A DNA stretch of 64,000 nucleotides from Candidatus Limnocylindria bacterium. Its GTDB lineage: Bacteria; Chloroflexota; Limnocylindria; QHBO01. Shown one piece after another: positions 12,938-38,712 of the stretch. The DNA lies in assembly GCA_046262115.1 (NCBI GenBank), contig JBHENJ010000037.1, positions 22,993 through 86,992 of the forward strand, given 5' to 3'. Position 1 is the first letter of the stretch, and the number at the start of each line of letters is the position of its first letter. The notes beneath the pieces are model-generated. The model was not told where the DNA came from, did no database searches, and saw only the letters and a program-made list of their open reading frames with translations. The position numbers and the translations under genes are program-made.

Positions 12938-14004
12938 CGCGCGTCGCGTACGTTGTCAGCGCCGCCGGCTCCGCGGTCGCGATCGTCCTTCGCGTGCTGA
13001 ACGCCGATGCGTCGCTGACCTTCGCCGTCGCCGCGTTCGCCATCCTCGGACTTGCGTACGTCCTCGGCCACGCCACCGAGCAGCTGGGCGCGGTGCTCGG
13101 GCCGCGCGCCGGCGGCGTGCTCAACGCGACCGTCGGCAACATCGGCGAGATCATCATCGCCGGCTTCCTGATCGCGGCGGGCGAGCTCGAGGTGGTGAAG
13201 GCCTCGATCACGGGCTCGATCATCGGCAACCTACTGCTGGTGCTCGGCCTCTCGCTGCTCGTCGGCGGGGTCCGCAACGGGATCCAGCGCTTCGACACGC
13301 GCCTGACCGGGATGAACGCCGCGTCGCTCATCCTCGCCACCATCGGCCTGGTCGTGCCCGCGACGTTCGCCCTGCTGATCGGCGGCGGCGCGGAGACGGG
13401 CGCGGACGAACGCCAGTTCTTTTCGATCGAGGCGCTCAGCGTTGGGGTCGCGGCGCTGCTCATCACCATCTATGGCCTCTCGCTGGTGTACCAGTTCCGC
13501 ACGCCGGGAGCGGCGCCTCCGGACGAGGCTGAGCATGCCGCGGCGTGGCCGTGGAGGCTCTCGCTCGCGGTGATGCTGGGCTCGGCCATCGTGCTCACGG
13601 CAGTCTCGGAGGTCCTGGTCCACACCATCGACCCGGTGGTCGAGACGCTCGGCATCAGCCGCTTCTTTCTCGGGATCATCTTGATCCCGTTCATCGGCAA
13701 CCTCGCCGAGCACGTCGTGGGGATCACGCTCGCCTACAAGAACAAGATGGACTTCAGCCTGTTGACCTCGATCGGCTCGTCCACCCAGATCGCGCTCTTC
13801 GCGGCGCCGGTGCTCGTCTTCTTCAGCCTCCTTATCGGCCAGCCGCTGACGCTCGTGTTTACGACCCTCGAAGTCGTGGCCGTCGCGGTCGGCACCTTCA
13901 TCGCCGCGTACATCGCGGTCGACGGTGAGTCGAACTGGCTCGAGGGGGCGCAGCTCGTCTCGGTCTACCTCATCCTGGCAATCGCCTTCTTCTTCCTGAC
14001 CTGA
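12934..14004 (+). CDS. Ca2+/H+ antiporter (CaCA/ChaA family)
   Basis: Two alpha-repeat motifs (GNIGEIIIAGF; GNLAEHVVGIT), ~11 TM. Confidence 0.85.
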   Translation: MTRVAYVVSAAGSAVAIVLRVLNADASLTFAVAAFAILGLAYVLGHATEQLGAVLGPRAGGVLNATVGNIGEIIIAGFLIAAGELEVVKASITGSIIGNLLLVLGLSLLVGGVRNGIQRFDTRLTGMNAASLILATIGLVVPATFALLIGGGAETGADERQFFSIEALSVGVAALLITIYGLSLVYQFRTPGAAPPDEAEHAAAWPWRLSLAVMLGSAIVLTAVSEVLVHTIDPVVETLGISRFFLGIILIPFIGNLAEHVVGITLAYKNKMDFSLLTSIGSSTQIALFAAPVLVFFSLLIGQPLTLVFTTLEVVAVAVGTFIAAYIAVDGESNWLEGAQLVSVYLILAIAFFFLT

Positions 14005-15029
14005 TGGACGATCGACCGATGGATGGGAGCGAGCGCCGCAAGCGCGATCGCCTGGCGCGTCTCCTGTCCGTTGTCTCGATCCTCTACACCGCCGCCGAGC
14101 GCGACGACGAGGGCGTCGCCGCGATCGAGATCGCGCGGCTCACCGGGATGAACGTGCGCACCGTGTACCGCGACCTGCGCGCGCTGGAGGAGGAGCTCGA
14201 CGTCCCGATCTTCTCGTCCGGCCGCGGCCGCTTCGGGATCGAGCGCAAGTTCTTCCTGCCACCGCTCCGGCTGACCGTGCCGGAGGCGATCGTGTTCTTC
14301 GTCGCGGCGCGGCTCATCACGCAATCCTCGGACGAGTACGACGCGGTCGTGGTCAGCGCGTTCATGAAACTCGCCGATGCGCTCCCGCAACCGATCGCGC
14401 GCCACATCGCGCAGACGATGCTGGCGATCGGCGAGCGGCGCCGGGACGAGGCGTTCACCAGCAATTTCGCCGCGGTCGCACGCGGCTGGGCCGAGGGGCG
14501 TGTCGTCGAGTTCACGTACGAGGGCGGGCACGAGCGGCGGGGCCCGCTCCGGCTGCGCCCGTACTTCATCGAGCCCTCAGCGGCCGGACGGAGCGTCTAC
14601 GTCATCGGCTTCGAGGAGACGAACGGCGGGATGCGGACGTACAAGATCGAGCGCATCCGCCAGGCAAGCGTCACTCTCGACCGATACGAGATACCCCTCG
14701 ACTTCGACGCGGACCGATGGCTTGCGCCGGCGTGGGGCATCTGGTCGGCGGACTCGACACCCCCAGTGACGGTGCGGCTCCGCTTCGATGCCGCAGTCGC
14801 GCGGCGAGTCCGCGAGTCCATCTGGCACCGATCGCAGCGACTGGTCGAGTTGCCGGACGGCCGGGTAGAGCTCCACATGGAAGTCGCAGGCACGGTCGAG
14901 GTGCGGCCGTGGATCCTGGGCTGGGGCGACTCGGTCGAGGTGCTCGAGCCGCCGGAGCTTCGCGCCGCGGTGGCGCAGGCGGTGGGCGCCGCGGCCGACC
15001 ACTATCGCGCCGGCGGGAACGGAGGCTAG
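14004..15029 (+). CDS. WYL-domain transcriptional regulator (HTH-WYL-WCX)
   Basis: N-terminal HTH (IARLTGMNVRTVYRDL), central WYL region (VVEFTYEGGHERRGPLRLRPY...), C-terminal WCX; TGATG overlap with antiporter gene. Confidence 0.8.
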   Translation: MDDRPMDGSERRKRDRLARLLSVVSILYTAAERDDEGVAAIEIARLTGMNVRTVYRDLRALEEELDVPIFSSGRGRFGIERKFFLPPLRLTVPEAIVFFVAARLITQSSDEYDAVVVSAFMKLADALPQPIARHIAQTMLAIGERRRDEAFTSNFAAVARGWAEGRVVEFTYEGGHERRGPLRLRPYFIEPSAAGRSVYVIGFEETNGGMRTYKIERIRQASVTLDRYEIPLDFDADRWLAPAWGIWSADSTPPVTVRLRFDAAVARRVRESIWHRSQRLVELPDGRVELHMEVAGTVEVRPWILGWGDSVEVLEPPELRAAVAQAVGAAADHYRAGGNGG

Positions 15030-17545: not shown

Positions 17546-18530
17546 ACTCGACCCGGTGCCGGACGGCGCGCCCTCGTCCGCGAGCGAGTCCCTGTTGTAC
17601 GACCCCGCCTCGGAGGGGCGCGCCCTCGGGCGACTCGCCGCCATCGCGATCACCGCCTACCTGCTGCTCGTGGCGTACGCGATGATCCTGACCGGGACCT
17701 GGGTCACGCCCGACCTCCTCGTGATCGCCATCGGCATCGTCGCGATCCTGATCGGGCAGGCCCGGCTCTTCGTGCGCGACTGGGTCCCGTTCATTCTGAT
17801 CTTCCTCGCCTGGGAGGCGATGCGCGGGTACGCCGACAACCTCGGCGCGCCGGTCCACTCGGACGGCGTGATCGCCCTGGAGCGCCTCATCTCCTTCGGC
17901 ACCGTGCCCACCGTGGAGCTTCAGCGTCTGCTGCATCGCGCCGATGTGGTCACGCCGCTCGACATCGCGACGTCGCTGATCTACGCCGCGCACTTCGTCT
18001 TCCCGCTCGCGGTCGCGTTTATCTTCTGGCTCCGCGACCGGCGGCTCTACTACCGGTTCGTCGGAACGCTGATGCTCATGGCGCTCGTTGGGTTTGTCTT
18101 CTACCTGCTGCTTCCCGTGGCGCCGCCGCGCTTCGCACTCCTCCACGGCGAAAACCTGCACGTCCAGGACGTCATTCACAACACGCTGGTCAACCTCGGC
18201 CTCAACGCGAACGCGGACTGGGTCTACTCGAACCTGAACCCGAACGACAACGCGGCCTTCCCGTCACTCCACGCGGCGTTCCCCGTGCTTGCGTTCCTCT
18301 TCGTCCGGCGCATCGCGCCGCGTGCGGCATGGCTGCTCGCGGTGTACGCGTTAGCGGTCTGGTTCGCGATCGTCTACCTCGGCCACCACTACATCGTCGA
18401 CGTCCTTGGTGGCGTGGCGCTCGCCTTGGCAGCCTACTGGGTCGTGATCCGCAAAGGCATACTGGATCGCCTGCTGGTGAGGCTGATGGCGATCCGCATC
18501 CACCCGCCGGCACGAGCCGGGGCCGGCTGA
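17535..18530 (+). CDS. PAP2-superfamily membrane phosphatase/phosphotransferase
   Basis: PAP2 motifs PSLHAAF and GHHYIVDVLGG; start uncertain (17460 or 17535). Confidence 0.65.
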   Translation: MSIRLDPVPDGAPSSASESLLYDPASEGRALGRLAAIAITAYLLLVAYAMILTGTWVTPDLLVIAIGIVAILIGQARLFVRDWVPFILIFLAWEAMRGYADNLGAPVHSDGVIALERLISFGTVPTVELQRLLHRADVVTPLDIATSLIYAAHFVFPLAVAFIFWLRDRRLYYRFVGTLMLMALVGFVFYLLLPVAPPRFALLHGENLHVQDVIHNTLVNLGLNANADWVYSNLNPNDNAAFPSLHAAFPVLAFLFVRRIAPRAAWLLAVYALAVWFAIVYLGHHYIVDVLGGVALALAAYWVVIRKGILDRLLVRLMAIRIHPPARAGAG

Positions 18531-18557
18531 GGGGGACGCCGCGGCGGGCGGCGACCG

Positions 18558-19244
18558 TCAGAGCGGGAGCTTCTGGATGACGCTCAGCGTCGGCCGCACG
18601 GCGCGCGGCGCGGGCTGCGCGATCGGCAGACGGATCCACGCGTCGCCCGCCGGACCGGGCCGATAGCGCGCGGACAGGCGCCGCGCCGAGATCGCTTCCA
18701 TGCCGAGCTCTCCGAGCGCCTCGGCGACGGTCATGCCCTCCTCGCGGAACCCGCGGCCCACGATCGTGGTCTCGCCCCTGCGGACGAGCGCTCGAAGGCG
18801 GTCGCGGCGCTCGACGAACGGTCGGGACGCGAGCGTCTGGCCCTCGAGATAGAGCAGGTCCGTCGCGACGAATGCGGCGCGGCCGGCGGTGACGCCGCGG
18901 ACCGCCAGACGGCGGCGCAGGAGCTCCGGGTCGGGACGGCCGTCGCCGTCCAGCACGAGGAGCGTCCCATCCATGACCACCGCGTCGCCGCGAAGCTGCT
19001 CGCCCAGCGAGCCGAGCTCGGGGAAGCTTTCCAGGAGGTCGGTGAGCTGCTCGCTCTGGAGCCGGACCTGGCGAGACTCGACGAAGGGCAGGGCGCGCAC
19101 GCCAGGCCACCACGGCTCGAAGTAGTACCCCGGGTCATCGAACGGACCGACGCCATCGGTCGCCTGCATCGGTCGCACGTGGAGCGGCAGCCGGCCGCCC
19201 GAGTCGGGTGTGTCGATCGAGAGCGGAAGCTGCACGGCCCCCAC
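18558..19244 (-). CDS. ATP-dependent DNA ligase-fold protein lacking catalytic lysine (LigC/LigD-ligase-domain-like, probably inactive)
   Basis: Nucleotidyltransferase-domain homology (motifs III, IIIa, IV, V recognisable), but motif I KxDG reads EPWWPGVRAL and motif V Lys is Arg; no OB domain; 17 nt downstream of ku. Confidence 0.6.
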   Translation of the reverse strand: MGAVQLPLSIDTPDSGGRLPLHVRPMQATDGVGPFDDPGYYFEPWWPGVRALPFVESRQVRLQSEQLTDLLESFPELGSLGEQLRGDAVVMDGTLLVLDGDGRPDPELLRRRLAVRGVTAGRAAFVATDLLYLEGQTLASRPFVERRDRLRALVRRGETTIVGRGFREEGMTVAEALGELGMEAISARRLSARYRPGPAGDAWIRLPIAQPAPRAVRPTLSVIQKLPL

Positions 19245-19261
19245 CGTGGCTGACCGCCGGG

Positions 19262-20104
19262 TCAGGCGGTCTTGCGCGCCGCTCGCCGCTGGGTGGCGGG
19301 CTCCTCGCCCGCACCCTTCCGGCGCGACTCTCGTGCGGCCGCCACGCTCGCCTCGAGCGCCTGCATCAGGTCGGTGAGCTTGGTCGCCGGCGCGCGCTCG
19401 ACGCGTACGGGCGCCTGCCCCTCGACCTTGGCCTGGATGACGTTCATCAGCGCCTGCCGGTATTCGTCGTGGTACTGGTCGATCTGGAACTCGCCTGTCA
19501 TGGATTCCACGAGCTGCTCGGCCATCTTGCGCTCCGCCGGCTTGAACTCGTGCTCCTCCTCGGGAAGGTCCAGGTCGCGCACGGCACGGATCTCGTCCGG
19601 CCAGTGGAGCGTGGTGAGCAGGAGCGTCTTGTCGAACGGGTTGAGCGACGCCAGCTGCTCGCGATCCTTGAGGACGATCTTGGCGATCGCGGTCCTGCCG
19701 GTGTCATCGAGCACCGATTTCAGCAGGTAGAACGCCTTGCGGCCGATGGGCTCCGGCTCGAGGTAGTAGGCCTGCTTGACGAACTGCACGCCCTGCGTGT
19801 CGCGCCTGGCCTCGGTGAAGAGCTCGATATCGATGGCACGCATCGTCTTGAGCGGCAGCGAGTCGAGGTCCTCGTCGGTGACCACCACGTACTGGCCCTT
19901 CGACCACTCGTAGCCCTTCACCGTGTCGGTCCGGCTGATGACCTCGTCGTCGTACGGACAGTAGGTCTTCATCTGGATCCGGTTCAGACATTTGGCGTGC
20001 AGCATGTTGAAGCCGATGCCGCCGCTTTCGGTGGCGAGGTACAGCTTGACCGGGATCGTCACCAGCCCGAACTGGATCGCGCCCCGCCACATCGGACGTG
20101 CCAT
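19262..20104 (-). CDS. ku: Ku (NHEJ DNA end-binding protein)
   Basis: Canonical start MARPMWRGAIQFGLVTIPVKLY, Ku core and C-terminal basic tail. Confidence 0.9.
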   Translation of the reverse strand: MARPMWRGAIQFGLVTIPVKLYLATESGGIGFNMLHAKCLNRIQMKTYCPYDDEVISRTDTVKGYEWSKGQYVVVTDEDLDSLPLKTMRAIDIELFTEARRDTQGVQFVKQAYYLEPEPIGRKAFYLLKSVLDDTGRTAIAKIVLKDREQLASLNPFDKTLLLTTLHWPDEIRAVRDLDLPEEEHEFKPAERKMAEQLVESMTGEFQIDQYHDEYRQALMNVIQAKVEGQAPVRVERAPATKLTDLMQALEASVAAARESRRKGAGEEPATQRRAARKTA

Positions 20105-20295
20105 GGATCTCCTCGAAGTTCGTGATCGGGTGTGCCCTCCCCGATCGGCCGCAAGACGATACGCCAAACAAGCAAGCCCTTGATGGCATTTCCATGCTCG
20201 CACGGCTGATGCCTGCGGGCAACGATCTTCAGTACCAGCCGCACCGGACGCTGCGGCCATTGTTCGGGCATACCGAAACGACGAGATTCCCGCCG

Positions 20296-20706
20296 ATGGA
20301 ACACGCGCACCTGCCCGTCGCCCAGCGGGCATACGTCCTCGAGGACGAGCCCGCGATCGCCGCGATGGAGGCCGACCTTCTTCGCGAGATGGGGTTCTCG
20401 GTCGTCACCTGCAGCCGGATCGTCGAGCTTGGCGACCTGATCGAGCTGTCACTGCCACACCTACTGATCGTCGACCTGAACCTGCCGGACGGCGACGGCG
20501 ATCAGGTGGCTCGGCTGCTCGCCCACGAGTGGCCGGGCATCCCGGTCGTGTTCGTGAGCGGGGCGCGACGCGAGCGCCTCTACCCGTTGCGCGAGCTCGG
20601 CCCGGTAGTCCAGAAGCCGTTCGACCTCGATGACTTCACCAGCGCGGTGCAGGAGGCGCTCGATCACCCGTACGCCGCGCGGCTCGGTCTCGCGTCAGGA
20701 GGCTGA
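20296..20706 (+). CDS. single-domain response regulator (CheY-like receiver)
   Basis: Receiver motifs (VLEDEP, LLIVDLNLPDGDG, KPFD); start at MEHAHL inferred. Confidence 0.65.
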   Translation: MEHAHLPVAQRAYVLEDEPAIAAMEADLLREMGFSVVTCSRIVELGDLIELSLPHLLIVDLNLPDGDGDQVARLLAHEWPGIPVVFVSGARRERLYPLRELGPVVQKPFDLDDFTSAVQEALDHPYAARLGLASGG

Positions 20707-20713
20707 GCGCCGG

Positions 20714-21199
20714 CTAAATCACCCGGTCGCCTTCCGGTCCCGTGACCGCGACGAGCGCCGACGCCACCTCGCCACCGGCGCGGCTCAGTCGGTATCGGTG
20801 CTCGATCTCGAGCGCCTTCGACAGCATCCTGCTCACCGGGCAGTACTTCATCGCGGAGAGTTCGACCGCGCGACGCACCGCTTCCGCCTCGATCTCGCCT
20901 TCGACCTGGTGCTCGACGACGATGTGGAGGAAGACTGACGGGGTCTCGTCCGCCTTCTGAGCGGTGATCGCGACGCCGTAGCGTGCCGGCGCCTGTCGTT
21001 TCTTGCCGAGGATGCTGACCACGTCGACCGCGGTGCACGACGCGAGGGCGGCGAGCACGAGCTCGGTCGGGCGCGCGGCGCTGTCGCCGCCGGTGGGCGG
21101 GAGCACGTCGGCAACGACCTCGTGACCCGACGCGGTGCGTGACTGGACGCGCGCGCCGCCGTCGAGCGAGACACTCGCCTCGAGCCGGACCTCAGCCAT
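20714..21199 (-). CDS. OsmC/Ohr family peroxiredoxin-like protein
   Basis: OsmC fold signature (ELVLAALASCTAVD... AMKYCPVS). Confidence 0.8.
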   Translation of the reverse strand: MAEVRLEASVSLDGGARVQSRTASGHEVVADVLPPTGGDSAARPTELVLAALASCTAVDVVSILGKKRQAPARYGVAITAQKADETPSVFLHIVVEHQVEGEIEAEAVRRAVELSAMKYCPVSRMLSKALEIEHRYRLSRAGGEVASALVAVTGPEGDRVI

Positions 21200-22916
21200 C
21201 AGCCGCGATCGTATCCTCGCGGATCCCCTTCGTCGCACCGGCGACGCCCTCGGCCAGCAGCACGCGCCCCCCGGCCAGGGACTCGTACAACGCCTCGACG
21301 CGCTCGAGCGTGTCGATCTCGTCGGGCGTCTTGTCGTCGCGAATGCGCACGATGCGCGGAAAACGCATCGCGAAGCCGCTCTTGTGGCGGTTGCTGCGCT
21401 GGATCAGGTCGAAGGCGATCTCGACGACGACCTCCGGCGCGACGCTGCGGAAGCGCCCGAAGTCACGGATCGTGATCGCCTGGAAGTGCTCGGTGTACGC
21501 AGTGATCTCCGCATCTGTCAGCCCGGTGTAGGCCTTGCCTATCGTGACGAGCCGGTCGTTGGCGGTGTCCCGCACGGCGAACGTGTAGTCGGAGAGCACC
21601 GCCCGCCGCTTGCCGTGGCCCCATTCCACGCCGACCACCACACAGTCCAGGGTTGCGAGCGCGCGCTTCAGCTTCAGCCAGCCGAGCCCGCGGCGCCCTG
21701 GCTGATACACCGACGACGGGTTCTTGATCATCAGCCCCTCGTTGCGCCGGGCCTGCGCGTCGTCGAACAACCGGTCGACCTCCTCCGCCGAGCGCGCCTG
21801 GACGAGGTGCGTGTAGAGCAGCCGCTCGCCGCTGCACTCCGGGAGCTCGAGCGCCTCCAGGGCAGCCCGGCGTTCTCTCAGCGGCTCGTCCAGCAGGTCG
21901 CGTCCGTCGAGGTGCAGCACGTCGAACGCCACGAAGACGACCGGTATCCGCTCCTGGAGCGCGGCGTCCGGCGCGACGCGTCCAAGCCGCTGCTGGAGGT
22001 CCTTGAACGAAAGCGCCGCACCTTCGCGGTATGCGAGCAGCTCACCGTCCAGAACGATCTCGCGGCCGAGCGCGGCTCCCGCGGCTGCTGCCTCGGGGAA
22101 TGAGCGCGTCACCTCCTTGAGATCTCGACTGAAGAGGCTCGCCCGTCCGGCGGCGGCGTGCAGTTGGGCACGCACGCCGTCGTACTTGTCCTCGACCCAC
22201 GCCTCGGCGCCGACACGCCGCATGACCTCGTCCGCATCCTCGACCGGCGAGGCGAGCATGAACCGGAGCGGCCTGCCGAGCTGGAGCCGCGCCTCGTCGA
22301 GCCGCCCGGCGCGGGCAAACGTCGCGGCGACACCGATGTCGCCGACGACCATCACCGCCCGCCGGAGCTCGTCGAGCGCCACGTCGAACGCGGCCGCCAC
22401 GGCCTCCTCCAGCAGCCCCTCGCGCAGCCCGATGCGCAGGTCGCGCTGGAGGATCTTGGCGATGTAGCGCGCCTCGCCTCCGCTCGCCCGGCCGAACAGC
22501 GTCGCGAGGCGCGCCGCGCGCTGCTCCCCGCTCGACGACCGCGATATCTCCTCAAAGGCGTCGTGCACGTCCGCCAGTGTCAGCGGCCGCGAGTCCGGCG
22601 TCCGACCCTCCAGGAGCTCGCCGGCCACGTCGCCCAGATCCGAGTGGCGGAGGTAGCTGTCGCCGAATCGTTCGACGTCGACGCCGGCGAGCCCGGTCAG
22701 CGCCGCCGACACCTGGACCCAGCCCAGCCCGAGCCGGTCATCGGCGCCCGGAAGCGGCCTCCCTGCCAGGAAGGTGCAGGCGATCCGCAGGTCCTCGTCG
22801 CGAAGAGCACGGAGGTAGTCGGCCAGGACCGCGCGCTTGCGGAGCTTGCTGGTCGTCGCGGCGGCCGCATCGGCCGCAACCACGAAGTCGGCGAGGGCGG
22901 CCGATCGGGCGGTCAC
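21192..22916 (-). CDS. ligB: ATP-dependent DNA ligase (LigB/Lig I type: DBD-NTase-OB)
   Basis: Motif I EDKYDGVRAQ, motif V/VI present, 574 aa. Confidence 0.85.
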   Translation of the reverse strand: MTARSAALADFVVAADAAAATTSKLRKRAVLADYLRALRDEDLRIACTFLAGRPLPGADDRLGLGWVQVSAALTGLAGVDVERFGDSYLRHSDLGDVAGELLEGRTPDSRPLTLADVHDAFEEISRSSSGEQRAARLATLFGRASGGEARYIAKILQRDLRIGLREGLLEEAVAAAFDVALDELRRAVMVVGDIGVAATFARAGRLDEARLQLGRPLRFMLASPVEDADEVMRRVGAEAWVEDKYDGVRAQLHAAAGRASLFSRDLKEVTRSFPEAAAAGAALGREIVLDGELLAYREGAALSFKDLQQRLGRVAPDAALQERIPVVFVAFDVLHLDGRDLLDEPLRERRAALEALELPECSGERLLYTHLVQARSAEEVDRLFDDAQARRNEGLMIKNPSSVYQPGRRGLGWLKLKRALATLDCVVVGVEWGHGKRRAVLSDYTFAVRDTANDRLVTIGKAYTGLTDAEITAYTEHFQAITIRDFGRFRSVAPEVVVEIAFDLIQRSNRHKSGFAMRFPRIVRIRDDKTPDEIDTLERVEALYESLAGGRVLLAEGVAGATKGIREDTIAADG

Positions 22917-36820: not shown

Positions 36821-37438
36821 TCAGCCTTCGGGCATCGAGTCGCGATCGCGGCGGCCGAACATGACGTCCAGCATCCCGGGCTGGCGCACGCGGTCGATGG
36901 CGATGCGCACCCACTCCTCATTGCGCTCGCCCGCGAGATAGCGCGAGTTGGCGTGCTTGGCGAGGCTGGCGCGGAATCCCTGTGCGCGCCAGATCGCGAA
37001 CTGCGGACCGAGCGGGGCGCGGACCGCGGGTGTCACCCGCAGCACGTCGCTCTCCGCGACGATCGCCTCGAGCAGCCGCCGGCGCTCGAGGAGCGGGATG
37101 TCCAGCAGCTCCTGGCCGTCGACGACGAGCAGGTCGAGCGCGATGAGCAACGGACGCCCATCCGTGGCGCCCTCCGCGGGAATCCAGCTCTGCGCCCACA
37201 CCGCGTCGATCACGGCGTCATCGGCCTGCACGCCTGCACGCAGTGCGGCGATCGCATCCGGGAAGGAGCGGTCGACGCGCGCGCCGCCCGGATCGGTCAG
37301 ATGAACGGCACCGCCGCGGACGAAGCCGAGCAGCCGCTCACCGTTCCAGTACGGCTCGAAGAGCCACTCGGCACCGGTGCGGACGGATTTGGCCCTGCCC
37401 GCGTACTGCGGAAGGAGCACCCGCCCGGCCACGGTCAT
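36821..37438 (-). CDS. ATP-dependent DNA ligase-fold protein lacking catalytic lysine (paralog of 18558..19244)
   Basis: Motif I reads EPYWNGERLL (K->Y, D->N); motifs III (LDLLVVDG), V (LAKHANSRYLAG) recognisable; no OB domain; ATGA-coupled to DEAD-box helicase gene. Confidence 0.6.
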   Translation of the reverse strand: MTVAGRVLLPQYAGRAKSVRTGAEWLFEPYWNGERLLGFVRGGAVHLTDPGGARVDRSFPDAIAALRAGVQADDAVIDAVWAQSWIPAEGATDGRPLLIALDLLVVDGQELLDIPLLERRRLLEAIVAESDVLRVTPAVRAPLGPQFAIWRAQGFRASLAKHANSRYLAGERNEEWVRIAIDRVRQPGMLDVMFGRRDRDSMPEG

Positions 37439-38712
37439 GCCACGTCGTAGAGCTTCAGGCGTCCCTGCTCGATGTCCGCGTCCAGGCTGGCCATCATCTC
37501 CTGCCACGGCTGGATGTCCCACTCCGCGACGAAGGTGATGGCGGTGCCTTCCTTGCCGGCGCGGCCAGTGCGGCCGATGCGGTGCACGTACGTCTCCGCG
37601 TCCTCCGGGATGTCGTAGTTCAGGACGTACGGAAGGTCGGTGATGTCCAGGCCGCGCGACGCGACGTTCGTGGCGATGAGGAGCTGGAACTTGCCGGCCT
37701 TGAAGTCGGCGAGCGTCCGGTCGCGCTCTCGCTGCGAGAGGCCGCCGTGGAGCGCCGCCGCGCGCTTGCCGCGCCCTTTGAGGCTCGCGGCCAAGCGGTC
37801 GACGCCGATCTGGGTGTGCCGGAAGACGAGCAGCCGATCGAAACCGAAGTCCTCGACCAGCTCGATCAGCGCCGCGACCTTATCCCGCTCCGCGACCTCG
37901 TAGTAGAGCTGCTTCACGGTGTCGACCGGCTGGAGCATGGGCGCGACGCTGATGTGATCGGCGTCGTGGCGCATGAATCGGTCGCAGATGCGGAGGATGG
38001 CGTACGGCATCGTGGCGCTGAAGAGCGCCGTCTGCCGATGGCGAGGGCACCGCGCCAGGATCGTCTCGACGTCGACGATGAAGCCCATGTCGAGCATGCG
38101 ATCGGCCTCGTCGAGGATGACGACCGATACGTGCGCGAGGTCGAGCTCGCGACGCCGGATGAGATCGAGGACGCGCCCCGGCGTGCCGACCACCATCTGT
38201 GCCCCGGCGGCGAGGCCGCGGATCTGGCGGTCCATGCTCGAGCCGCCGTAGATGGCGACCGGTCGCACGTTGCGGAACTGACCGAGCTTGGCGATCTCGT
38301 CGGTGACCTGCACGCACAGCTCGCGCGTCGGAGTGAGGATGAGCGCCTGAACGTGGCGGGCGGCGGGGTCGATGTGCTGCACGATGGGAATTCCGAAGGC
38401 GGCGGTCTTGCCCGTGCCCGTCTGCGCCTGTCCGATCAGGTCGTGCCCCGCCTGGAGCACCGGGATCGAACGCGCCTGGACCTCGGTCGGCTCGGTGTAG
38501 CCCATCCGCTCGAGGGCGCGCGCGATGGTCACCGGGATCGGAATCTCGCCGAACCGATGGGCCGGGAAGGCGGCGACCGCTGCGGTCAGCTCGTCTGCGT
38601 CCGGGGCTGGTGCGTTGCCTGCGCCGTTGGTGTGGTCTGGTCGTTGGGCGGGAGCGGAGCGGCCCCTGCGCCTTGGTGGCCCTGTGGGGGCCCGGCGATG
38701 TGTTTCTAGCAA
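37435..38712 (-). CDS. DEAD-box ATP-dependent RNA helicase
   Basis: Q motif, AQTGTGKT, DEAD, SAT, HRIGRTGRAG motifs. Confidence 0.85.
   Translation of the reverse strand: MLETHRRAPTGPPRRRGRSAPAQRPDHTNGAGNAPAPDADELTAAVAAFPAHRFGEIPIPVTIARALERMGYTEPTEVQARSIPVLQAGHDLIGQAQTGTGKTAAFGIPIVQHIDPAARHVQALILTPTRELCVQVTDEIAKLGQFRNVRPVAIYGGSSMDRQIRGLAAGAQMVVGTPGRVLDLIRRRELDLAHVSVVILDEADRMLDMGFIVDVETILARCPRHRQTALFSATMPYAILRICDRFMRHDADHISVAPMLQPVDTVKQLYYEVAERDKVAALIELVEDFGFDRLLVFRHTQIGVDRLAASLKGRGKRAAALHGGLSQRERDRTLADFKAGKFQLLIATNVASRGLDITDLPYVLNYDIPEDAETYVHRIGRTGRAGKEGTAITFVAEWDIQPWQEMMASLDADIEQGRLKLYDVA

Follow-up and report, generated by a model that had tools for sequence, protein, structure and literature searches.

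Introduction

Bacterial nonhomologous end joining (NHEJ) is taught as a two-protein system formed by Ku and LigD, and the eukaryotic pathway is known to include the non-enzymatic scaffolds XRCC4, XLF and PAXX. Catalytically dead Lig4 has been described to support vertebrate NHEJ structurally while Lig3 seals the break (PMC9638927, PMC11754673), and the C-terminus of Ku contacts the ligase domain of LigD in M. tuberculosis (bioRxiv 10.64898/2025.12.12.693941). Here we analyze a ku locus of a Candidatus Limnocylindria bacterium (Chloroflexota), located in a stretch of 64,000 nucleotides with a G+C content of approximately 70% (contig JBHENJ010000037.1 of assembly GCA_046262115.1, positions 22,993 to 86,992; the whole stretch is referred to as “the window”). 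The gene following ku in this locus encodes a protein with the fold of a DNA ligase, in which the catalytic residues have been replaced; we will refer to it as the “pseudo-ligase”. The locus thereby presents a third gene besides the two of the taught system, strictly linked to ku and under selection, whose ligase-derived product is predicted to be unable to ligate.

Proteins of this family are publicly annotated as “bifunctional NHEJ protein LigD” or “ATP-dependent DNA ligase”. A published survey of NHEJ classifies by domain presence only (PMC7719229), and domain-based surveys would score genomes carrying the pseudo-ligase as NHEJ-proficient, which is unsafe where the pseudo-ligase is the sole Ku-adjacent “ligase”. 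Searches of the open-access literature gave no account of a bacterial homologue of ligases that is Ku-linked or lysine-less.

The Gene Following ku Encodes a LigD-Type Ligase Domain

The pseudo-ligase gene (18558..19244, minus strand) encodes 228 residues from a GTG codon at 19244, and consists of a LigD-type nucleotidyltransferase (NTase) domain with no oligonucleotide-binding (OB) domain; the version deposited at NCBI has 225 residues, as it starts three codons later at the GTG of position 19235. The open reading frame (ORF) is 100% identical to P0001, a hypothetical protein from a metagenome-assembled genome of Candidatus Limnocylindria (Chloroflexota). It is separated by 17 nt from the stop codon (TGA) of ku (19262..20104, minus strand), the first gene of this bicistronic unit, which encodes 280 residues from MARPMWRG to RKTA (both ends checked by translation) and matches TIGR02772 (2.1e-80) and PF02735 (1.7e-38).

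A preliminary description of this DNA, made from the letters, had aligned the gene downstream of ku with the NTase domain of LigD, and this assignment is borne out by different profiles and structures. The protein matches PF01068 with 33.2 bits (gathering score, 26.2), positions 476-657 of the 781 of the LigD profile PRK09632 at 1e-29, and the ligase-domain structures of M. tuberculosis LigD (MtLigD; 1VS0, 6NHX and 6NHZ) at approximately 1e-17. The AlphaFold2 (AF2) model shows a single domain with a predicted local distance difference test score (pLDDT) of 89.8 and a predicted template modelling score of 0.86, only residues 1-20 being poorly ordered. When this model was used as a Foldseek query, the top matches were all NTase domains of ATP-dependent DNA ligases, with template modelling scores of approximately 0.7 and root-mean-square deviations (rmsd) of 2.3-2.4 Å, such as 3RR5 (E = 1e-15) or MtLigD 6NHX (E = 7e-13, rmsd 2.3 Å). 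By profile and by model, the pseudo-ligase is thus a LigD-type ligase domain in both fold and descent.

The absence of the OB domain, also pointed out in the preliminary description, agrees with the single domain of the AF2 model and with the extent of the profile matches, which end at the NTase domain (TIGR02779 stops at position 183 of 302); no match to the OB domain carrying motif VI (PF04679) was found in the protein, whose C-terminus lies approximately 20 residues beyond motif V. The curated cut-offs for NHEJ ligases are all missed by a wide distance (TIGR02779, 86 vs. 227.75; TIGR02776, 67 vs. 373; PRK09632, 103 vs. 989). The family is acidic, with a median isoelectric point (pI) of 5.3 and a net charge of -4.

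Loss of the Catalytic Residues

In ATP-dependent ligases the Lys of motif I (KxDG) is the adenylated nucleophile, the Phe of motif IIIa stacks on the adenine, and motifs III, IIIa, IV and V provide nucleotide and metal contacts. Residue equivalences were obtained from a residue-by-residue alignment with MtLigD, and motif III, motif IIIa and the second Lys of motif V were placed via the LigD motifs. Motif I is present as EPWWPGVR (19095..19118, minus strand; EPKWDGYR in LigD), where K481 of MtLigD is replaced by W45 and D483 by P47, so that both the Lys and the Asp are lost, as originally reported; G484 and R486 are kept as G48 and R50, and the Glu of the motif (E43) is also retained. Motif III reads DGTLLVLD (18948..18971; DGEAVVLD in LigD), with a nearly invariant Thr (T94) in place of the Glu, and motif IIIa reads VATDLLYL (18846..18869; WAFDLLYL in LigD), with Thr (T128 in the window protein) or Ser in place of the Phe. 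In motif IV, EAISAR (18681..18698; EGVIAK in LigD), K618 has become the nearly invariant R188. Motif V, WIRLP (18624..18638; WVKDK or WLKLK in LigD), carries R205 instead of K635, as had been noticed, and P207 instead of the second Lys, both replacements being nearly invariant. The Arg of motif Ia has been replaced by Glu.

Two points of the preliminary description need correction. The string ATDLLYLEG, which had been taken as motif III, corresponds to motif IIIa (FDLLYLDG in LigD), motif III being VMDGTLLVLD; and motifs III, IV and V, reported there as recognizable, are so as remnants, since none of them keeps its catalytic residue. Otherwise that description holds, and the losses go further than it stated: with every residue involved in adenylation replaced and no OB domain, the protein would be unable to self-adenylate by the canonical mechanism. 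Other lysyl-AMP chemistry is also unexpected, since 61 of the 97 full-length family members contain no Lys at all (the window protein has one, K225), and a lysyl-AMP intermediate could not form in them. This depletion is not regarded as a special adaptation, as the genome itself is Lys-poor (median of 1.1%, and no more than 0.4% in 7 of 29 long ORFs). The losses in motifs I, III, IIIa, IV and V, the missing OB domain and the curated cut-offs all lead to the classification of the protein as a pseudo-ligase rather than as LigD. Judged from its residues, it is a pseudoenzyme in the accepted sense, where catalytic residues are absent and purifying selection is present.

Conservation and Selection

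At least 443 relatives of the pseudo-ligase are found in protein databases; the best 120 are all 200-264 residues long and 51-100% identical. The family is encoded in 215 species-representative genomes; among the best 80, almost every one carries the label Limnocylindria or Chloroflexota. No normal KxDG was seen in the orthologues, a circumstance that the preliminary description had asked to be looked for: over the window and 80 genomic loci, the motif I string reads FEPWWPG in 80/81 cases and FEPWWTG in the remaining one, and a few metagenome copies have FEAWWPG. Identical substitutions in 80 of 81 independent orthologous loci exclude chance as their origin. In an alignment of 39 sequences with a mean identity of 52%, E43, P44, W45, W46 and G48 are among the 33 invariant columns. 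The ratios of nonsynonymous to synonymous substitutions (dN/dS; Nei-Gojobori, twelve pairs of lowest dS, with dS of 0.14-0.40) range from 0.04 to 0.25 for the pseudo-ligase and from 0.01 to 0.21 for ku. The Trp and Pro substitutions are therefore conserved across orthologues, under a constraint like that acting on Ku.

Linkage to ku and to Genuine Ligases

ku lies directly upstream and on the same strand in all of the 78 fetched loci that have upstream DNA (78/78), with gaps of 8-25 nt between both genes in loci of the window's type. Three arrangements can be distinguished. Type A loci, to which the window belongs, contain, in this order, a three-domain ATP-dependent DNA ligase (motif I KYDG), OsmC, sometimes a response regulator, ku and the pseudo-ligase, with a WYL regulator beyond. 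In Type B loci (18 of the 80 fetched) ku and the pseudo-ligase are followed by LigD, with phosphoesterase, ligase (EPKWDGYR) and OB modules, and then by a polymerase domain protein (PolDom). Type C loci have ku and the pseudo-ligase alone within 10 kb. The pseudo-ligase was previously stated to sit where an NHEJ ligase normally resides: its adjacency to ku agrees with this statement, which fails in so far as one clade has a real LigD downstream of it in that operon. Since the Type B operon has a complete LigD downstream, the pseudo-ligase is an addition to the NHEJ ligase and not a substitute for it.

In the window, the three-domain ligase (21192..22916, minus strand) is encoded approximately 2 kb upstream of ku; it has 574 residues, with DNA-binding, NTase and OB domains (PF04675; PF01068, 2e-45; PF04679), and an OsmC-like peroxiredoxin gene (20714..21238, minus strand) comes directly after it. 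Of the 80 fetched loci, about one half have a syntenic three-domain ligase situated 2-6 kb upstream of ku. Neither a phosphoesterase nor a polymerase module of LigD is present within the 64-kb window, where the ATP-dependent ligase is the three-domain enzyme, a candidate for the sealing role in this type of locus. The pseudo-ligase thus co-exists with real ligases, which are the nearby three-domain enzyme here and, in one clade, a LigD belonging to its own operon.

A converse scan, centered on Ku, covered 67 assessable metagenome loci whose Ku is 64-75% identical. The pseudo-ligase is present in 44/67, ku continues straight to LigD in 17/67, and neither follows in 6/67. The Ku loci without pseudo-ligase group in a Ku clade of their own, and the gene is carried by around 97% of those in the linked clades.

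Two further observations concern these loci. P0132 (metagenome, 856 residues), the top-scoring “real” ligase in the search of representatives described below, was discarded as a mis-called ORF in which a pseudo-ligase's C-terminal half is fused to the LigD that comes after it, and exemplifies how ku/pseudo-ligase/LigD loci become mis-annotated. The Ku C-terminus (19262..19279 in the window, and in all fetched loci) ends in a near-invariant basic RRRK[TS]A-COOH after a variable linker rich in Ala, Lys and Glu; its reading as a signature particular to pseudo-ligase-linked operons was rejected, as it is kept in all classes, with or without pseudo-ligase.

Terminal Peptides and the Wider Lysine-Less Superfamily

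Both ends of the pseudo-ligase carry conserved peptides, which the preliminary description had overlooked, like the three-domain ligase upstream of ku and the second lysine-less gene of the window. The N-terminal one (QLPLSI, residues 5-10; 19215..19232, minus strand) follows the family consensus [DE]QLxLx[ILVF], located around four residues from the N-terminus in 94/99 family members. The C-terminal one (LSVIQKLPL; 18561..18587, minus strand), present in the window protein as RPTLSVIQKLPL, follows the consensus LxLIxRLPL, found in 98/99 members at zero to few residues from the C-terminus. In the AF2 model the pLDDT is approximately 52-67 at the N-terminal peptide, a region that is probably flexible, and 75-78 at the C-terminal tail. 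The beta-clamp-binding consensus has been described as a pentameric QLxLF or a hexameric QLxLxL (PMC4564189), and E. coli Hda places its N-terminal 6-QLSLPL-11 in the cleft of the clamp (PMC5397184); by its residues, the N-terminal peptide of the pseudo-ligase matches the clamp-binding hexapeptide.

A profile search was carried out over 1.84 billion representatives. The ranking opens with around 45 WWPG clusters, after which real LigD/LigC (KWDG) appear mixed with approximately 35 other lysine-less ligase-like clusters, and the motif I Lys is absent from about 70 of the 150 best representatives. Among these 150, considering complete N-termini, the peptides occur only in Lys-less proteins, and none of 29 Lys-containing ligases has both (0/29). 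This confinement indicates that the peptides arrived together with the loss of catalysis. One sister family, characterized by EPxWGG, comprises more than 2,800 proteins from Limnocylindria, which are NTase-only and variable at the position of the motif I Lys; its N-terminal DQLSLRLE and C-terminal RLPL peptides are each found in 118/118 proteins. Its genes are monocistronic and lie beside a Tricorn/S9 peptidase gene, not beside ku (L085-L087). The size of this family, together with the proportion of representatives deprived of the motif I Lys, points to a sizeable class of pseudo-ligases that has gone unstudied.

Other lysine-less relatives retain the OB domain (P0147, P0151/P0188), and in these the C-terminal peptide is placed after it. 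The gene of P0147 (L168) lies 4 nt upstream of a full LigD, that of P0151 follows ku, and that of the more distant P0188 (Candidatus Dormibacteria, L170) is the last of a LigD-x-HNH-ku-pseudo-ligase operon, directly after ku; a Lys-less, OB-retaining relative is likewise placed directly after ku in the metagenome contig of L084.

A Promoter-Like Element and a Candidate Regulator

A promoter-like element, GCTTGCTTGTTTGGCGTATCGTCT, is found upstream of ku (20154..20177, minus strand), around 50 nt before its ATG, with the pattern cTTGCnn-N8-TAnnnT and a “-26 element plus -10” layout. The pattern occurs in 95 of 107 ku upstream regions (0.7 in shuffles) and has no other match in the window, where 0.12 would be expected; of the 62 matches of its position-weight matrix in 1.26 Mb of loci, 61 are at ku. 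The scan of positions 18200-20500 for plain sigma-70 promoters and terminators gave nothing, and the conserved element emerged only from the comparison of loci. The 17-nt gap and this one conserved element ahead of ku show a transcriptional coupling of the pseudo-ligase to ku. In some loci the -10 is situated only about 8-10 nt before the ATG of ku, an indication that the mRNAs of ku are leaderless there.

With a spacing of 8 nt, a -35 box of the sigma-70 kind is excluded. PafBC “sigma-adaptation” promoters consist of a -10 and a -26 element that is contacted at -23 to -28 (PMC8635444), and the ku element has the same layout, with -26 plus -10 and no -35 box. A gene for a winged helix-turn-helix (wHTH)-WYL-WCX regulator resembling PafBC/DriD (14004..15029, plus strand; PF25583 WCX, 2e-21; PF13280 WYL, 2.5e-9; HTH_11/HTH_PafC) is syntenic in Type A loci, at 1-5 kb from the ku/pseudo-ligase unit and with 61-68% identity. 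The layout of the element and the synteny of the WYL gene make damage-responsive control of ku by a WYL activator a reasonable hypothesis, and the wHTH-WYL-WCX protein a candidate single-stranded-DNA-sensing activator of the ku promoter.

Other Features of the Window

The pseudo-ligase gene is followed downstream by a convergent PAP2 gene, and a divergent response regulator gene lies upstream of ku; flanked in this way, ku and the pseudo-ligase constitute an isolated two-gene unit. PADLOC gave no match, and the family has no members on viral contigs, phages or plasmids, where only generic ligases with less than 37% identity were found; an origin in a mobile element or defence system was discarded on these grounds.

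A second lysine-less, ligase-NTase-like gene is present in the window (36821..37522, minus strand), with a probable start at the ATG of position 37438. Its motif I reads LFEPYWNGERLL (K to Y, D to N) and it matches PF01068 at 3.8e-8; it is 28% identical to the Ku-linked pseudo-ligase and has neither the QLxLxL nor the RLPL peptide. Its ATG and the stop codon of a DEAD-box helicase gene (37435..38712) form an ATGA overlap, and a glycerate kinase gene comes next. The product may represent another family of pseudo-ligases, coupled in this case to a helicase.

Discussion

That the pseudo-ligase is a conserved, non-catalytic, Ku-linked protein can be held with high confidence. Regarding its function, we consider the chances evenly divided on whether it binds Ku and serves NHEJ as a non-catalytic adaptor or scaffold. 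Among the roles listed in the preliminary description, the evidence favors that of a partner of Ku (structural, scaffold or regulatory); the ligase NTase fold, the tie to ku and the predicted inability to self-adenylate are likewise supported. In the mechanism we propose, the acidic NTase core would dock on Ku, most simply as the ligase domain of LigD meets the basic C-terminal arm of Ku, and the two conserved terminal peptides would recruit partners to the Ku-bound end, the N-terminal one recruiting the sliding clamp. Clamp-associated or other non-LigD enzymes might in this way be brought to the break, or the repair complex be stabilized while another ligase seals, a role that the nearby three-domain ligase could fill in loci of the window's type. 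The invariant Trp-Trp-Pro is likely to occlude the vacant nucleotide pocket or to provide a new surface for binding. A DNA-binding pseudo-enzyme, also contemplated in the preliminary description, is not favored, since an acidic protein (median pI of 5.3) without OB domain and without the motif Ia Arg is not expected to bind DNA strongly alone.

Several observations weigh against this adaptor role. The clamp assignment depends on one six-residue motif, and the C-terminal LxLIxRLPL fits no motif known to us. The residues D522, K579 and L580 of the Ku interface of MtLigD are not conserved, and align with G86, D148 and R149 of the pseudo-ligase. The EPxWGG sister family bears the same peptides without being linked to ku, so that the partner of the peptides need not be Ku-specific, and the core role of the family may be broader than NHEJ. 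Besides, the Ku relatives without pseudo-ligase go straight to LigD; the gene is thus not required for every Ku of the lineage.

Other explanations have been weighed. The dead NTase might act as a decoy or brake, competing with LigD or other ligases for the C-terminal arm of Ku or for the DNA end, and thereby limiting or timing mutagenic joining until displaced. The preserved LigD fold, its stoichiometric production with Ku from one promoter, its location between ku and ligD in one clade and the contact of Ku with LigD's ligase domain in M. tuberculosis would all suit such a competitor; we nonetheless deem it unlikely, because pure competition needs no two extra conserved terminal peptides, which are conserved too in a paralogue unlinked to ku, the Ku-interface residues known from MtLigD are not retained, and in the window's locus type there is no LigD within 64 kb to compete with. 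Somewhat less probable still is a prozyme-like partner, in which the dead NTase would heterodimerize with the three-domain ligase or LigD and couple the enzyme to Ku. The syntenic three-domain ligase 2-6 kb upstream, the P0147-type relatives placed 4 nt ahead of a full LigD and the precedent of dead Lig4 plus Lig3 (PMC11754673) speak for this possibility; the accompanying ligase, however, varies by clade (three-domain, LigD or none within 10 kb), making a single fixed ligase partner unlikely.

The remodelled pocket (E43, W45, W46, P47, G48, R50) has also been considered as a sensor that would recognize, with no catalysis, a nucleotide, an end bearing 5'-phosphate or 5'-AMP, or else a flipped base. 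The replacement residues WWPG are themselves invariant while the Lys position is variable in the sister family, suggesting a specific new use of the site, and the Glu, Gly and Arg of motif I are kept. A sensor is nevertheless improbable: the ribose and phosphate contacts are all gone (Glu of motif III, Phe of IIIa, Lys of IV and V), the protein is acidic and has neither an OB domain nor the Arg of motif Ia, and the two Trp may simply fill the pocket. Lastly, a decaying gene (raised in the preliminary description) or a strain-specific error, both refuted here, or a cryptic ligase with another nucleophile has the absence of the canonical motifs as its only support and retains almost no probability in view of the invariant substitutions across orthologues around 50% identical (80/81 loci), dN/dS values of 0.04-0.25 like those of Ku, intact reading frames in 215 genomes, the 61/97 members without lysine and the missing OB domain needed for adenylation.

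Returning to the adaptor or scaffold, these data suggest that, in one group of uncultured soil bacteria, a third component, undescribed and non-enzymatic, takes part in end joining. If this role is true, the pseudo-ligase would be the first “dead ligase” of natural origin among NHEJ factors, would parallel in bacteria what Lig4 and XRCC4/XLF do structurally, and might link Ku to the sliding clamp. A broader model, put forward as speculative and somewhat doubtful, is that Limnocylindria and relatives such as Dormibacteria possess an NHEJ of at least three components, where the pseudoenzyme would be an obligatory Ku partner bridging the Ku-bound end to the beta clamp and reaching non-LigD polymerases or ligases, as a prokaryotic counterpart of the eukaryotic scaffolds and a member of a large, undescribed, lysine-less “QLxLxL-NTase-RLPL” superfamily.

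Comparison With Known Systems

The closest described protein is the ligase domain of M. tuberculosis LigD (Rv0938; 1VS0, 6NHX, 6NHZ), which gives the best sequence and profile matches (1e-17 to 1e-29) and has in common with the pseudo-ligase its fold, its genomic tie to ku and the stretches PFDDP.W.FEP.W.G.RA, GRPD and DLLYL.G. The pseudo-ligase differs from LigD in lacking the Lys nucleophile, the catalytic residues of motifs I, III, IIIa, IV and V, the OB domain (motif VI) and the phosphoesterase and polymerase domains, and in having N- and C-terminal peptides not found in LigD. With respect to the clamp binders, such as E. coli Hda or Pol IV, a hexapeptide of the same consensus is located at the extreme N-terminus of the pseudo-ligase, is predicted to be disordered and is kept across two paralogous families; the resemblance is only six residues long, and we know of no NHEJ factor that uses the clamp.

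The sister lysine-less families, for which no description was found in the searchable literature, are alike in their terminal peptides, in the loss of the motif I Lys and in the Lys-to-Arg change of motif IV, and some follow ku or precede LigD; they are unlike in their motif I, where xWGG or [DN]WDG takes the place of the WWPG of the Ku-linked family, and in that some keep the OB domain. As for inactive DNA ligase IV (K273A-type), it also illustrates that a ligase body without catalysis can support the end-joining complex, as proposed for the pseudo-ligase. Inactive Lig4 nevertheless consists of engineered mutants and XRCC4, XLF and PAXX have unrelated folds, whereas the pseudo-ligase is a separate natural gene beside active ligases; it has no homology with the eukaryotic NHEJ factors beyond the ligase fold, and the likeness lies in the role proposed for it. 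Set beside these systems, the gene following ku is a naturally evolved, Ku-coupled dead ligase with new peptide motifs, and part of a large undescribed group.

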